A program made the translations under genes and the position numbers. 42,805 nt of DNA from the sequence record OR996328; one strand, given 5' to 3'. The notes under the pieces were generated by a model that saw only the letters and a list, made by a program, of their open reading frames with translations, was not told the origin of the DNA and did not search any database. Shown piece after piece: positions 6,431 through 41,032 of the stretch (within the stretch, counting starts at the first letter, position 1; every line of letters begins with the position of its first letter). The stretch comes from Escherichia phage Shy.

Positions 6431-6444
6431 GGGCCGCGACGGGG

Positions 6445-6466
6445 CGGGGGCTTCGGCCCCCGTTTT
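6445..6466 (+). terminator. rho-independent terminator/attenuator after capsid gene
   Basis: CGGGGGC (6445-6451), TTCG tetraloop, GCCCCCG (6456-6462), then TTTT (6463-6466). Confidence 0.7.
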
Positions 6467-10450: not shown

Positions 10451-10457
10451 ACTAAAT

Positions 10458-10486
10458 GGGCCGGTGCGATATCCGGCCCGTTTTTC
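10458..10486 (+). terminator. rho-independent terminator/attenuator after major tail gene
   Basis: GGGCCGG (10458-10464), 8-nt loop, CCGGCCC (10473-10479), then G plus TTTTT. Confidence 0.7.
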
Positions 10487-11321: not shown

Positions 11322-11748
11322 TCTTTTAGACTTAGCCAATCGGCTAGAAAAGAAAAAGGCCGAAATTGAGACGGCCGCCAGCGAAGCGGCCGTTTTTGTT
11401 GCTGTTACCGCCGTCGCTGAACTGGCATATACGACGCCCGTTGATACGTCGAAGGCGCTGTCGTCTTGGGAAGTCACCTTAGACGCTCCGTCTTCTAATG
11501 TGGGCAAGGCGCATTATCCCGGCGAAAAAGGTTCGACGCGCAACGCATCGGCCGCCGAAACAATCGCGCAAGCGAAAGCTGTATTAGCGAATAAGAAGCC
11601 CGGACAAAAGATTTATATAACAAACAATCAACCGTATATCAAGCGATTGAACGACGGTTATTCGGCGCAACAATCGGCCGGATTTGTAGAACGCTGTTTA
11701 GCCAAAGTTCGCAAGGCCGTACAGCGGTATAAACTGAAACTTAAATAA
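11311..11748 (+). CDS. HK97 gp10-like tail/neck component
   Basis: 145 aa. TTPVDTSKALSSW and ITNNQPYIKRLNDGYSAQQ resemble the PVDTG.LR and .Y....E.G signatures of the HK97 gp10 family. Confidence 0.55.
   Translation: MAGNLLDLANRLEKKKAEIETAASEAAVFVAVTAVAELAYTTPVDTSKALSSWEVTLDAPSSNVGKAHYPGEKGSTRNASAAETIAQAKAVLANKKPGQKIYITNNQPYIKRLNDGYSAQQSAGFVERCLAKVRKAVQRYKLKLK
11499..11506 (+). repeat. TGTGGGCA motif copy
   Basis: ctaaTGTGGGCAag, inside the gp10-like CDS (N-V-G-K). Confidence 0.9.
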
Positions 11749-11759
11749 AAGGCGGAATC

Positions 11760-14700
11760 ATGGCCGACGAACAAATCGTTATTGAAATTACGGACGGCGT
11801 AGCGGCGTCTATCCCGGCGAAGATTGACCGAATCGCCGCGTCGGCCCGCAACGCGCATACCGCAGTCGAAACGCTGAAACAACAACTTGCCATGCTGGAC
11901 GGTAAGGGGTTGCAATCGCTTTCGGCCGCAATGAACCAAGCGGCGTCGGCTTCGACCAAACTTGCACAAGCGCAACAGGCAGCCAATACCACGGCCGCGC
12001 AAGCCGCTATCTTGCAAAACCGCGTCGAACAGTCGGCCGCAAACGCCGCGAACGCGCAAGCCCGTTTGGCTACCGCTTCGACCAATACGGCGACGGCGCA
12101 ACAACGCTTGGCTACCGCAACCGCTAACACCGCTACCGCCGAAGCGAAGTTAGCGACCGAAACGGCTAAGACTTCGACCGCACAATCGAACAGTGCCGCC
12201 GCCGCGTCGCGTGCGGAACTGGCTTCTATTCGTCTGCAACAGGCGCAAAAGAAGTTGGAAGAACAGAACCAGAAAACGACTAATTCGTTTATGGACTTCG
12301 CAAAGCGTGCGCTTTCGATTGCCGCGATTACCGCCGCAACCGGTGCCCTGTTGAAGTACGCCGACAGTTATACCGCTTTGCAAAACAAATTGCAAAACGT
12401 TTCGTCGTCGCAAGCGCAAGTTAACGAACTTACCGACCGCCTGTACGAACTTGCGAACAAGACGCGTGCCGGGGTTGACGAAACCGCGACCGCATTTACG
12501 CGCTTTGACCGGTCGTTGAAGTTAATGGGTAAATCGCAAGAAGATACTTTGCGAATGACCGAAACCATTAACAAAGCGTTGGTCGTATCCGGTGCCACTT
12601 CGTCGGAAGCATCGTCGGCCCTGTTGCAGCTTTCGCAGGCGTTCAACTCCGGTAAGTTGCAAGGCGACGAATTCCGTTCCGTATCGGAAAACATGCCCGT
12701 CGTATTGGACGCCGTAGCCAAGGCGCTTAACAAACCGGTTGACCAAGTTAAAAAACTCGGTACGGAAGGCAAGATTACGTCGGAAGTTCTGTTTAAAGCG
12801 TTCCAGCTTATTCAACAGCAAATCGACGATACCTTCGCGAAAACGACGCCCACAATCGGGCAAGCGATGACCGTACTTAACAACCAAGTCGGCCAATTCG
12901 TCGGTAAGCTGGATAAAGCGACCGGCGTATCGTCGGCACTGGCGAAGGCGATTCTTTGGCTTGGTAACAATCTCGACCTGTTGACCGTGGCGCTTGTGGC
13001 CGTAGGCGCGGCCCTGCTGGTCGCGTTCGGGCCAGCCCTGCTATCCGCCCTTGGCGCAGCGACGACCGCCGTAATTGGCTTCACGGCGGCCCTAGCGGCC
13101 AACCCGATTGGCCTTATCGCGATTGCCATTACAACCGCTATCGCAGCCCTTACCGTATTCGGCGACAAGATTTCGGTTACTTCCGACGGTCTGGTTAACC
13201 TGCAAGACGTTGCGAAGTCGGTTCTTTCGATTGTCGGCGACGGGTTTAGCGCCGTTGGTGCCGAAATCCAATCGCTTTGGGGTAAGGCGATTGATTGGAT
13301 TAACGAAAAAACTAACGGTTGGGGTGAAAACTTCCGTTCGCTTGGCGATACTATTCTGTCGCTAGTTAAGGCGACCGTTAACGGTTATATCGGCGCTTGG
13401 GTTTCCGCATACAACGTCGTTAAAACCGTTTGGGATAACTTCCCGGCCCTTATGAAAGGGCTGTTTGCGCTTGTCGTGAACGCTGGCGCAACGGCTGTTG
13501 AAACGCTGGTGAATAGCTGGCAAATTGGTATTCGCGGCATTGCGTCGCTTGCCGAAGGTGTTGCCCCGGAACTGGTCGCCAAGTTGAACGGCGCACTTGA
13601 CAAAGCGAAAATCGAATTGCCGCGTATGCAAATCGAACAGGAAGCGAAAGACGCCGGTTCGGCTGTCGCACAAGCCGCCGTGTCGGGCTTCCAAACCGAT
13701 TACGTTGGCGGTATGACCGACGCCATTATGCAAGGTGCCCGCAAGATTTCGGAAGCCCGCCGCGCAGCGGAAGCCGAAGCGGCTAAGTCGAACCTTCGCG
13801 GTGCCGGTACGAACCAGCTTTCGGGCGACGACGGCAAAACGAAGAAAGCCAAGTTGACGCAAGAACAGAAAGATTACAACAAGGCGCTTAAAGAAGTTAC
13901 CGCACCTTTGCGCGAATATAACGCCGCAATGGCTGTCGCCAAGGCGCTTTATGACACTGGCGCAATTAGCCTTGAAAAATATAACGCATTGGTCGCCAAG
14001 GCGAAAGACGCATACGCCAGCGCAACCGACCCGCTGTATTCGTTCAACAAGGCGGCACAAGAACAATTCGACGTACTGTCGAAAGTCGGCCCGGCGATGG
14101 AAGCGGAACGAAACGTTATTCAGGCGCGAAACGCCGCATTGCAAGCGGGCTTGCCGTTTAGCGAAGCTATGGCCGAAAGCATCCGTAAGACGACCGTTGC
14201 ACTTGACGAAGCGCAAAAGAAATCGGACGTTCTTAACAAGATTTACAGCGAAACCAAGGGCGCACAAGCTGACTTGACGGCGCAACAACAGGCGTATAAT
14301 CAGGCGTTGGCGAACGGCGCAATTTCGGCGGAACAGTACGGCATTAAAATGCAACAACTGAACGTCGATGCCGCAAATCTTAAAATGCAAATGGGTACGG
14401 CCGGATTTAACGACGCAATTGTCGCCGGTATGGGCCAACTTGTTTCGAACTATCAAGGCGTGTTGCAAGGTCTGTCGGGCGCTTGGGGCAACTTCTTTAC
14501 CGGGTTCGTTGACGGATTCGCCAACAGCATCGGCCGCGCTATCGTGTACGGCGAAAACCTGCAAGATACGTTGTCGCAAGTTTCGAAGCAAATTCTTTCG
14601 GAACTTATCGGCGCACTTATCAAGGTCGGTATTCAATACGTCGTCAACCAAGCGTTAGCGCAAACCGCTATCACTGCGACGACCGCACAATCGACCGCAG

Positions 14701-22653: not shown

Positions 22654-22712
22654 GCGCGTCGCAGCGCCTTAGCCGGTACTACCCTACGCACTAGGGGCAC
22701 GAACGCCCCGCC

Positions 22713-22748
22713 TAGCCCCGCCAGCGCAAGCCAGCGGGGCTAATTTTT
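22713..22748 (+). terminator. rho-independent terminator of the structural operon (convergent junction)
   Basis: TAGCCCCGC (22713-22721), 12-nt loop, GCGGGGCTA (22734-22742), then ATTTTT. It overlaps the stop codon of the minus-strand polymerase gene. Confidence 0.75.
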
Positions 22749-29393: not shown

Positions 29394-29420
29394 ACGGCAT
29401 TATTCCCCTGTAAAGACGAT

Positions 29421-29438
29421 AAGGGGCCGAAGCCCCTT
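29421..29438 (-). other. intercistronic stem-loop after the SSB-like gene
   Basis: On the minus strand AAGGGGC, TTCG loop, GCCCCTT, followed only by a weak T-run. This is an attenuator or RNA-stability element rather than a full terminator. Confidence 0.45.
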
Positions 29439-29453
29439 ACCGTTGATTGCGAC

Positions 29454-36252: not shown

Positions 36253-36735
36253 ATGTGTATCGTTTGCGAAATCCGTAACAAACTGGCTATCGAAGTGCGC
36301 GACCCCGAAGCTATCGGCTTCGTTATGCAGCGCGTCGAATTGATGGCCCGCATTCTTCACAACGTAACCGAACTTGGCAAGCAATACGCCGAAACCGGCC
36401 CCGGCATCGACAAGCGCGTTTTCCTTGATACCGCTGTCATTGCTTCGGCTTGCCTGTCGGATAGCGTAGAAGCGACCGAACATCGTAACGCCGAAATGGC
36501 CGCGCATTCGGGCAAGGACGAAGCCGAAGCCCTGTTCGACCTTATCGGGGCGCTTATCGGCTTGAAGCGTCGCAACGACGCCGAACCCGAAGGCAACCCC
36601 GGATTGCCGCCCGAAGTATGGGCCGCTATGCCCGCCGAATTGCGCGAAATGATGAAAGGCGCAAAGGTCGTGCATATCGACAGCGAATCCGACTTGTTCG
36701 AAGCGTTGACGGGCCGTAAGCCGACGAAACACTAA
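36253..36735 (+). CDS. hypothetical acidic protein (160 aa), monocistronic cassette
   Basis: Its SD context CAAGGAGTTTT (36238-36248) is identical to that of the 40270 gene. It is flanked by its own promoter and terminator. Confidence 0.65.
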   Translation: MCIVCEIRNKLAIEVRDPEAIGFVMQRVELMARILHNVTELGKQYAETGPGIDKRVFLDTAVIASACLSDSVEATEHRNAEMAAHSGKDEAEALFDLIGALIGLKRRNDAEPEGNPGLPPEVWAAMPAELREMMKGAKVVHIDSESDLFEALTGRKPTKH

Positions 36736-36745
36736 CCGCAACACG

Positions 36746-36775
36746 AAGGCCGGGACAAGTTCCCGGCTTTCTGCT
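36746..36775 (+). terminator. rho-independent terminator
   Basis: GCCGGGA (36749-36755), CAAGT loop, TCCCGGC (36761-36767), then TTTCTGCTATT. The stem is extendable by A-T/G-U pairs. Confidence 0.65.
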
Positions 36776-37607: not shown

Positions 37608-37810
37608 CGGTACAACGGCATAACGACCGCATCGCGAAAAACGGGTCGCATCTTGAATCGGCTAAAACGCTGAAACAAGCCCTTGACAACCTGAAAGCGG
37701 CCGGTTTAAAATCGGAACAGTTGGACGAACGCACCCATTCCATTTACGGTTGGACGTTCGGCAACGACGATAAGGGTTATTACTTTTATCGGAACTACAA
37801 CCAAGCATAG
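37604..37810 (+). CDS. hypothetical protein (68 aa)
   Basis: ATGA-coupled to the VRR-NUC gene. Confidence 0.5.
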   Translation: MTVQRHNDRIAKNGSHLESAKTLKQALDNLKAAGLKSEQLDERTHSIYGWTFGNDDKGYYFYRNYNQA

Positions 37811-39971: not shown

Positions 39972-40169
39972 ATGACCCGGAAACACGTAGCCTATTGCAT
40001 CGGAATCGCCGCCTTGGTTATACTCGCAGGCGTCGCCGGTAACAGCGATTACGAAGAAGCCAAGCGGGAAGCCGAAGCATATTGCGCTAACGTGCATTCG
40101 GGGTTGTGGCCGGATTACAACGGTACTTATGCCGAATACTGCAAAAATGGCGAATACAACGGAAAATAG
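39972..40169 (+). CDS. small membrane/secreted protein (65 aa)
   Basis: Start moved to the ATG at 39972 (SD AAAGGAG at 39956-39962). It has an N-terminal hydrophobic segment CIGIAALVILAGVAG. Confidence 0.5.
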   Translation: MTRKHVAYCIGIAALVILAGVAGNSDYEEAKREAEAYCANVHSGLWPDYNGTYAEYCKNGEYNGK

Positions 40170-40172
40170 TTG

Positions 40173-40201
40173 TTGACGCGTCGGCTAAGTTACCCTAGAA
40201 T
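40173..40201 (+). promoter_or_regulatory. strong sigma70-like promoter
   Basis: TTGACG (40173-40178), 17 nt spacer, TAGAAT (40196-40201). It is followed by a leader hairpin at 40212-40234 (CCCCG...CGGGG with an inner CGAA/TTCG). Confidence 0.65.
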
Positions 40202-40269
40202 TCAACCCGTACCCCGCCGAATGGTTCGTCGGGGACAACAGTAGAACTTACTTGCAAGGAGTTTTCAAA

Positions 40270-40872
40270 ATGGCTAAACTGAACAAAGCGGCTTCGGAAC
40301 TGCTGGCCGCCATCGTTACCGCAACTACCGGCGACGCCGGTTACGCCTTCGCTTCCGCCAAGGCCGCGAAAGTTCTGGTCGCCGAAGGTCTGGTCGAACA
40401 GAACGAAACCATCACCAACGAAGGGGGCGACTTCGCTACCCGTGCAACCGAAAAGGGCATCGCAGCTATGAACGAACAGAACACCAACCAGAACACCGGC
40501 ACCGAAGGCGCTTCCGCCGCACCGGCCGTCGCATCGAACTTCGCAATCGTCGCCGACGTTGCCATGCCGGGCGCTTCCCGTGGCGGCCGTTCGACCGAAA
40601 CCTACCCGTTCGACAAGCTGGAAAAAGGGCAATCGTTCTTCGTGGCCGCAACCGAAGCCAAGCCGAACCCGGCGAAGTCGCTGGCTTCCACTGTCACCAG
40701 CGCCAACGAACGTTACGCCGAAGAAATCCCCGGCGAAACCCGCACCAACCGCAAAGGCAACGTCGTTCCGGCTACCCGCCAGATTCGCGAATTCGCCGTT
40801 CGCACCGTCGAAGACGGCGCACCGTGGGGCTTCCCCGGCGTCAAGGGCGCGGGCGTGTGGCGTACCCTGTAA
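40270..40872 (+). CDS. hypothetical protein (200 aa), monocistronic and probably highly expressed
   Basis: Start moved to the ATG at 40270 behind CAAGGAGTTTT (40255-40265). It is flanked by its own strong promoter and an 11-bp-stem terminator. No family was recognised. Confidence 0.65.
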   Translation: MAKLNKAASELLAAIVTATTGDAGYAFASAKAAKVLVAEGLVEQNETITNEGGDFATRATEKGIAAMNEQNTNQNTGTEGASAAPAVASNFAIVADVAMPGASRGGRSTETYPFDKLEKGQSFFVAATEAKPNPAKSLASTVTSANERYAEEIPGETRTNRKGNVVPATRQIREFAVRTVEDGAPWGFPGVKGAGVWRTL

Positions 40873-40914
40873 CGCCGCAACCCCGTAGCAACCGGGGCCA
40901 ATGACGGCCCCATT

Positions 40915-40949
40915 AAAGCCCCCGGCATCGCGTCCGGGGGCTTTTCTTT
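40915..40949 (+). terminator. rho-independent terminator
   Basis: AAAGCCCCCGG (40915-40925), 8-nt loop, CCGGGGGCTTT (40934-40944), then TCTTT. Confidence 0.85.
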
Positions 40950-41032
40950 GCGTGTCCGTCAATCTTGCGTTATGCTATCCGACATTGAATGCGTTTAATT
41001 TCGGATAATACGACTTGGAAAGGTGGCGAAAC

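Follow-up and report, generated by a model that had tools for sequence, protein, structure and literature searches.

A conserved and probably autonomous expression cassette for a DUF7303 protein in Escherichia phage Shy

Here, we examine positions 40173-40949 of the 42,805-nucleotide (nt) sequence of Escherichia phage Shy (record OR996328; hereafter, the window), an essentially whole genome of 42.8 kb with open reading frames (ORFs) extending from the terminase small subunit gene (1-471) to the spanin genes. This segment very probably constitutes an autonomous, monocistronic, high-output expression unit for a single protein, a member of the family DUF7303. We favor, with a probability of roughly 0.4, the interpretation that the protein is an abundant, non-virion, early-class nucleic acid binder, most likely, an architectural or coating protein on the phage DNA. 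All coordinates reported for the unit in an earlier sequence-only reading of the window agree with the sequence, and its description of the gene as monocistronic and strongly signalled is supported; the cassette is conserved across genera. The unit, its protein product and the signal that follows it are organized as listed.

40173-40178 (-35) and 40196-40201 (-10), plus strand: predicted sigma-70-type promoter, TTGACG-17-TAGAAT (sequence and scan, 10/12)
40209-40236 (core 40212-40234), plus strand: 5′-terminal stem-loop of the predicted mRNA (RNAfold)
40256-40261, plus strand: Shine-Dalgarno site AAGGAG, 8 nt 5′ of the ATG at 40270
40270-40872, plus strand: coding sequence of the DUF7303 protein, 200 amino acids (aa), 20.8 kDa (Pfam and PHROG matches)
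40270-40488, plus strand: N domain, residues 1-73, acidic, winged-helix-like (AlphaFold model)
40489-40599, plus strand: disordered linker rich in N/Q/T/A/G, residues 74-110 (AlphaFold confidence, family alignment)
40600-40869, plus strand: C domain, residues 111-200, basic alpha+beta (beta-alpha-beta4) (AlphaFold model)
40894-40911, plus strand: first hairpin of the 3′ untranslated region (UTR), GGGGCC-AATGAC-GGCCCC (RNAfold of 40873-40960)
40915-40949, plus strand: intrinsic terminator with a perfect 11-bp stem, an 8-nt loop and a U-tract
40948-40976, plus strand: second predicted sigma-70-like promoter, TTGCGT-17-TATGCT, overlapping the U-tract of the terminator

Expression signals and their conservation

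The predicted promoter lies within a 100-nt intergenic gap (the stop codon of the upstream gene is at 40167-40169) and combines sigma-70 hexamers matching at 10 of 12 positions with a spacer in the 16-18 nt range. It had been singled out as the best sigma-70 match in the window, a distinction that passes to 37683-37712, which matches at 11 of 12. Transcription would start near 40208. The leader hairpin has a folding free energy (ΔG) of -13.9 kcal/mol (z = -1.9), with 6 of 200 shuffles being equally stable (RNAfold), and an Rfam search over the window, including the leader and the 3′ UTR, yielded no family at the gathering score. We assign the start codon to the ATG at 40270 rather than to the TTG at 40252 because the family alignment opens with M-A-K, in which the Met is nearly invariant. 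At the opposite end of the unit, the terminator stem AAAGCCCCCGG/CCGGGGGCTTT encloses the loop CATCGCGT (40915-40944) and is followed by TCTTT up to 40949, that is, a GC-rich stem-loop with a U-tract just past the stop codon, as in Rho-independent terminators. Its ΔG is -21.6 kcal/mol (z = -4.4), and none of the 200 shuffles is equally stable (RNAfold). A consensus terminator scan omitted this site, probably because part of the T run pairs within the stem; RNAfold and a separate stem-loop scan both detect it.

These signals recur in the relatives of the phage. At the equivalent site, a TTGACA-16/17-TAnnnT promoter is found in phages Loki, 73, Pavpe01, Pfeifenkraut and Kmi2C, all of which also have a GC-rich stem with a U-tract 3′ of the orthologue; in Loki, this terminator was annotated by the authors of the genome. 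We further fetched 80 metagenomic viral loci and analyzed the non-identical ones (67 for the promoter, 52 for the leader, 70 for the Shine-Dalgarno site and 61 for the downstream promoter). Within the equivalent 145 nt upstream of the gene, promoters matching in at least 10 of 12 positions occur in 60% of the loci, compared to 3% of the control windows, and those matching in at least 9 of 12 in 87% compared to 10%; most of the loci contain a perfect TTGACA. Over their first 32 nt, the predicted leaders are more stably folded than dinucleotide shuffles of the same sequences (mean z -1.54, p 2e-7), significance that holds only against these shuffles, given that there is no excess over random genomic 40-mers. 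A stem-loop begins within 9 nt of the 5′ end in 33 of the 52 leaders, and its stems vary (GTCGC/GCGAC, CTGC/GCAG, TTGCCG/CGGCAA and others), so that the structure is kept but the sequence is not. In 47 of the 70 loci, the Shine-Dalgarno core spans at least 5 nt, and in 12 more, it spans 4 nt; 53 of the 70 have GCN (Ala) as their second codon. Terminators with a ΔG between -15 and -30 kcal/mol are found 50-90 nt past the stop codon in most of the related loci, and the extra GC hairpin 5′ of the terminator is also seen in relatives. Because promoter, leader, terminator and Shine-Dalgarno site recur at equivalent places in the relatives, the arrangement appears to be functional and maintained by selection rather than produced by chance.

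The gene also stands out in its codon usage. With an effective number of codons of 28.2 and a fraction of E. coli-optimal codons (Fop) of 0.687, it ranks first among the 41 genes, ahead of the major capsid gene (35.4 and 0.633, respectively), and a composition scan shows a local rise in GC content that parallels the codon bias. The orthologues rank 2nd of 40 genes in phage 73, 5th of 40 in Loki and 10th of 42 in RcTitan. Most likely, then, the DUF7303 protein is made in very large amounts, and the abundance of the product, surmised earlier from the expression signals, gains indirect backing from this bias. Within the virulent siphoviruses that carry it, a widespread group, no other non-structural gene may be expressed as strongly as the DUF7303 gene.

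Similar stem-loops, resembling strong intrinsic terminators, lie directly 3′ of the major capsid gene (6442-6465, plus strand), the major tail gene (10454-10483, plus), the single-stranded DNA-binding protein (SSB) gene (29416-29443, minus), the gene at 36253-36735 (36745-36771, plus), which is probably the "cassette 1" of the sequence-only reading, and the end of the structural operon (22700-22740, plus). Because such terminators adjoin the capsid, major tail and SSB genes, the DUF7303 gene shares this signal with genes for bulk proteins. In Loki, the authors also marked terminators behind the genes for the capsid, major tail, SSB and DUF7303 proteins, and at several other positions.

The sequence at 40948-40976, immediately behind the unit, probably serves as promoter for the lysis/packaging operon that comes next. 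In most of the 61 loci, the U-tract is followed by TTGC(C/G)T and, further 3′, by a conserved TAtacT-type -10 element (in an TCGGnTATACTTCG-type region). In some of these loci, the -35 and -10 elements are separated by only 11 nt, and this promoter may depend on an additional factor.

The DUF7303 family and its two-domain protein

The sequence-only reading could not assign the protein to a family, but a profile search places it in Pfam DUF7303 (PF23978; E-value 4.4e-61, 206.2 bits against a cut-off of 27, profile positions 6-194 of 195) and in PHROG phrog_7597 (E-value 2.1e-58, residues 1-199 against positions 1-192 of 193). Both families are already catalogued, with no function recorded for either; searches of Pfam, PHROGs, NCBIfam and PADLOC returned only these two families or nothing, again without a function. 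None of the 757 homologues is named. DUF7303 is present in approximately 129 phage records, whose hosts include Pseudomonas, Xanthomonas, Acinetobacter, Stenotrophomonas, Burkholderia, Achromobacter, Variovorax, Rhodobacter, Paracoccus, Sphingomonas and others, and the members that can be listed by phage include ORF052 of phage 73, ORF48 of Loki, orf35 of phiAxp-1, and those of KL1, DLP1/2 and PaMx42. Among phages of alpha-, beta- and gamma-proteobacteria, sequence identity is 45-55%. The homology is full-length, with the same two domains and linker and the same framing by promoter and terminator, and the gene is likewise the last of the early block, preceding the lysis and terminase genes. 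The copy in the window has a short N-terminal tail and an optional EDGAPWGFPGVKG insertion in the C domain and is otherwise essentially as in the rest of the family. A divergent copy, missed by tblastn, occupies the syntenic site in Klebsiella phage Kmi2C. In bacterial genomes (one per species, 185,579 species), there are only 3 matches, all in contigs of metagenome-assembled genomes, one of these about 45 kb long; hence, we read DUF7303 as a gene of virulent phages. From its sequence distribution, it appears to be a core gene of the virulent siphovirus group that includes Lokivirus, Septimatrevirus, Titanvirus and their relatives.

The AlphaFold model (mean confidence score, pLDDT, of 78) consists of three parts, matching the layout of N-terminal domain, linker and C-terminal domain that was deduced earlier from the translation. 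The N domain shows, in the model, a putative winged-helix fold of the MarR-like winged helix-turn-helix class, without a canonical helix-turn-helix pair or a basic DNA-facing surface. Across 65 members, its median net charge is -2 and its isoelectric point (pI) is about 5, and conservation is concentrated in the wing strands rather than in the putative recognition helix. Profile searches of the PDB gave only insignificant matches (7l1i, E-value 1.2). The linker, with pLDDT below 50 at residues 74-89 and 104-109, ranges from 26 to 59 aa across the family, and its end is marked by a conserved stretch, FAI...P, and an R-G-G-R motif.

The C domain (pI 9.35) holds most of the invariant residues, including conserved Lys, Arg and Trp, in the motifs YPF...GQSFFV, AKSLASTVTSAN.RY, RKG..VP, R.F.VR and GA.VWRT. 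It has no match among solved structures, and its matches in BFVD are only uncharacterized phage proteins, including stand-alone versions of about 80 aa. In one viral protein, annotated as containing the DnaA C-terminal DNA-binding domain, this domain is joined to a fold resembling the C domain (Foldseek E-value 0.055). A search of 1.84 billion representatives with the C-domain profile recovered 3,215 clusters, and among the matches listed (150 of these clusters), all are DUF7303-like and there is no informative fusion. Many members add a Lys/Arg-rich N-terminal tail: of the 99 long tails in the family, 64 have a net charge of at least +3, and a few are of the AKKAA type, like histone H1 tails. 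Neither HU/IHF or other known nucleoid-protein folds nor the OB fold and the SSB family were matched by the protein.

Two outlying sets of C-domain relatives were encountered. Septimatreviruses encode a second, stand-alone 98-aa relative, as in ORF039 of phage 73 (37160-37456; KYPFRSLQVGESFAIP...), which belongs to phrog_10287, a family of 24 unnamed members found only in this phage group; in the window, no copy of it was detected. In Rhizobium phage P106B, gene 17 (P106B_17, 11670-12161, minus strand) encodes a very distant relative (Foldseek E-value 1.5e-4, weak hidden Markov model match) with an N terminus resembling a signal peptide. This gene, which carries no annotation, is alone on the opposite strand within the structural module and, having both a strong terminator and a promoter-like TTGACA site of its own, can be considered another self-contained cassette.

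Candidate functions

The favored interpretation, a DNA-coating or architectural protein, draws on the predicted host-recognized promoter, the probable bulk expression, the status of a core gene of virulent phages, the basic C domain with the adjoining Arg/Gly motif, the basic tails, and the winged-helix-like module. Under this scenario, unmodified host sigma-70 RNA polymerase would initiate at about 40208; given the near-consensus promoter, the gene would be of the early class, with no phage factor required. The 5′ stem-loop should protect the mRNA from RNase E/RppH-dependent decay, translation would proceed from a full AAGGAG site with the most biased codon set of the genome, and transcription would end at the strong intrinsic terminator (40915-40949), directly behind which a second, weaker promoter would start the lysis/packaging operon. 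The product would then be required in stoichiometric, not catalytic, amounts. Nucleic acid would be contacted by the basic C domain, by the Arg/Gly motif that precedes it and, in many relatives, by the Lys-rich N-terminal tail, and the acidic winged-helix-like N domain, on its flexible linker, would be available for protein contacts or self-regulation. Of the options raised in the sequence-only reading, the DNA-binding or nucleoid-type protein fits best, as a putative assignment, whereas the virion or injected protein is disfavored by data on the phiAxp-1 homologue discussed below; the third option, a host-shutoff factor, ranks between the two.

Several observations weigh against a DNA-coating role. 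The winged-helix-like domain is acidic family-wide, which is unusual for a DNA-binding winged helix, and the whole protein is slightly acidic in the window (pI 5.7). In the model, DSSP assigns a single short helix between the strand at residues 26-28 and the wing. The phage already encodes a separate, annotated SSB of the DUF669 type. The codon bias is not extreme in all relatives, as in the case of RcTitan (10/42), and Fop was scored on E. coli optimal codons, yet a near-identical phage is recorded on Pseudomonas. Finally, the literature on DUF7303, phage Halfdan, Septimatrevirus and Kakheti25 yields nothing functional for any member: no paper mentions DUF7303, and those on Halfdan, Loki, DLP1/2 and RcTitan contain no functional or expression data for the gene.

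As the main rival, although we consider it unlikely, DUF7303 could be an RNA polymerase-associated regulator of the early-to-late switch that, produced from its own strong early promoter, binds the host polymerase and activates or extends transcription into the downstream lysis and structural operon, either by sigma appropriation, like T4 MotA/AsiA, or by antitermination, like lambda Q. Indeed, in every relative examined, the gene lies directly 5′ of the lysis-terminase-structural operon, which is the position of lambda Q, the genome annotation contains no further candidate for a late regulator, and an acidic N domain would suit protein-protein contacts. The downstream promoter, with its non-consensus -35 element (TTGCGT/TTGCCT) and, in some loci, wrong spacing, could need a factor; however, the late operon is equipped with a conserved -10 element of its own, and a codon bias above that of the capsid gene exceeds what a polymerase-binding factor would call for. 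Homology to T4 MotA was rejected: hhalign gave a probability of 0.9% over 15 columns, confined to a GLVE stretch, although this is a weak test.

A further possibility, which we deem rather improbable, is that DUF7303 acts in host takeover or anti-defense, being made in bulk at once to titrate an abundant, conserved host target or to mask phage DNA from nucleases. The nucleoid protein H-NS of the host is titrated in this manner by T7 gp5.5. An unassisted sigma-70 promoter implies immediate expression, the codon bias implies high output, and both the acidic N domain and the restriction of the family to virulent phages are in line with such a role. However, counter-defense genes are usually variable accessory genes, whereas DUF7303 is a syntenic core gene whose identity stays at 45-55% between phages of alpha-, beta- and gamma-proteobacteria, and it closes the replication block instead of occupying the genome end expected to enter first. 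PADLOC returned no match, which is weak evidence because the library consists of defense rather than anti-defense proteins.

That DUF7303 is a virion component, i.e., an internal, injected or decoration protein, is very improbable. Its expression signals and codon bias are comparable to those of structural genes, and virions prepared from phiAxp-1 contained its homologue, orf35 (AKJ71360.1), but with an exponentially modified protein abundance index (emPAI) of only 0.3, compared to 757 for the capsid and 11.3 for the portal protein (PMC4764938). This trace amount is level with the carry-over of helicase, recombinase and terminase (PMC4764938) and so fits contamination by an abundant cytoplasmic protein, not a structural component; judged by this proxy, the protein would not be present in particles in stoichiometric amounts. 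Furthermore, the gene lies outside the structural module, behind an early-type sigma-70 promoter, and PHROGs does not class the family as structural. The notion of an ordinary hypothetical gene with fortuitous promoter-like and hairpin flanks, prompted by the frequency of sigma-70-like hexamer pairs (18 in 12.8 kb against 8.3 in shuffles) and by the z of only -1.9 for the leader hairpin alone, can be set aside almost entirely given that each of the four signals is found again, with differing sequences, at the corresponding position in other genera.

Genome context, an over-represented 11-mer and known systems

The cassette ends a rightward early/DNA metabolism block that includes genes for primase, a VRR-NUC protein and deoxycytidine monophosphate (dCMP) deaminase, and is followed, in order, by genes for an unknown membrane protein, holin, endolysin and spanins, and then terminase. 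Its placement between the early/replication genes and the lysis cassette, as originally described, is confirmed and the same synteny is seen in relatives. The closest record is PP954860 (Escherichia phage Halfdan, Juelich variant; classed in Lokivirus), with 99.1% identity over the region, and the reference Halfdan is 97.5% identical. The recorded hosts differ: PP954860 lists Pseudomonas taiwanensis (soil), the reference Halfdan was isolated on E. coli K-12, and Pseudomonas is the host of the nearest other relatives. Either the host range is unusually broad, or the discrepancy is a matter of record-keeping.

Some annotations of the region call for comment. PP954860 includes two 35-aa "hypothetical proteins", CDS0051 over the promoter and leader (window 40170-40277) and CDS0053 over the terminator and the next promoter (window 40901-41008), both of which are probably spurious calls. 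A 255-aa antisense ORF (40195-40962, minus strand) is without support and was treated as a shadow of GC-rich third codon positions and codon bias. In the reference Halfdan protein (MH362766/NC_072811), residues 155-163 read EEIPAPKKSPAKGN, whereas the window (40732-40758) and the whole family have EEIPGETRTNRKGN; the former suggests a frameshift that was compensated, or else an error of sequencing, in the reference record.

Repeat analysis revealed an 11-mer, TAATGTGGGCA, i.e., T(A/T)ATGTGGGCA, that is about 10- to 25-fold over-represented in DUF7303-carrying genomes, when matches with at most 1 mismatch are counted and expected numbers are taken from shuffles. The window contains 11 copies, with ~0.6 expected, at 1923(-), 3604(+), 5128(-), 7015(+), 11496(+), 15269(+), 15428(-), 19070(-), 31027(+), 34402(-) and 35472(+). 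There are 12 copies in phage 73 (~0.6 expected), 21 in Loki (~0.9), 5 in RcTitan (~0.5), 81 in the 80 metagenomic loci (7.7) and 12 in Kmi2C, the last counted without a shuffle control. Lambda, P106B, Acinetobacter phage 53, Pkon1 and PS-1, which have no DUF7303-proper gene, contain 0 copies each, and Vibrio phage 1.115.B, which has no DUF7303 gene, contains 1; the last four of these phages have related capsid genes. The 11-mer thus tracks DUF7303 in 11 of 11 genomes (5-21 copies in 5 carriers and 0-1 in 6 non-carriers), and its core is the commonest 9-mer in Loki and phage 73. The copies are found on both strands, in coding and intergenic sequences, with no link to the direction of transcription, and in Loki, an inverted pair (9528/9549) forms the terminator after the major tail gene. 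The motif could be a binding, nicking, recombination or modification site.

There is no copy of the 11-mer in or beside the DUF7303 cassette and, therefore, no direct link of the motif to it. Moreover, the DUF7303-carrying genomes with annotation that we examined also share a replication module, so that the protein reading the motif is not singled out as DUF7303. Nevertheless, the co-occurrence supplies a direct binding hypothesis, namely, that DUF7303 is a new abundant phage "chromatin" protein with a new DNA-binding fold, in which a strongly conserved helix of the C domain (AKSLASTVTSAN.RY) reads T(A/T)ATGTGGGCA. We regard this proposal as a long shot; if true, DUF7303 bound at the 11-mers could organize or mark phage DNA for replication, packaging or protection. 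In a variant of it, the protein could also gate read-through into, or activation of, the adjacent late operon, as a self-timed switch.

The virulent siphovirus group to which these phages belong includes many candidates for phage therapy or biocontrol of Pseudomonas aeruginosa, Acinetobacter baumannii, Stenotrophomonas, Achromobacter, Burkholderia and Xanthomonas. A core protein that is likely made in capsid-like amounts and has a C domain without a solved match is a tractable target for understanding how these phages manage their DNA or their host. In addition, the compact promoter-leader-terminator unit, conserved in phages of alpha- to gamma-proteobacteria, could serve as a portable expression part.

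Individual features of the system have partial counterparts elsewhere. A 5′-terminal stem-loop of the ompA type shields mRNA from decay that depends on the 5′ end, and by analogy, the DUF7303 leader may stabilize its mRNA: in both cases, a stem-loop is located a few nt from the 5′ end of a highly expressed (here, predicted) message, with the structure but not the sequence kept, although the stem-loop is missing in some DUF7303 relatives, such as Loki. Unlike the winged helix-turn-helix proteins of the MarR/PadR type, the N domain is acidic, has one helix before the wing and lacks the MarR dimerization helix pair. As on the lambda map, where Q lies directly 5′ of a promoter followed by lysis, terminase and head genes, DUF7303 directly precedes a predicted promoter and the same series of functions; however, there is no homology between the two, the terminator of DUF7303 comes after its own gene, and a separate predicted promoter serves the operon that follows. 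DUF7303 also differs from T4 MotA: the C domain is absent from the double-wing matches, no AsiA-like partner was identified, and the expression level is apparently far higher.

Our favored working analogy is with phi29 p6, SPO1 TF1 and T5 D5, to which no sequence or fold similarity of DUF7303 was detected. TF1 is a protein of the HU family, and p6 has a fold of its own. All three are small, non-virion and very abundant proteins produced from host-recognized promoters that coat or organize phage DNA and influence replication and the early/late switch.

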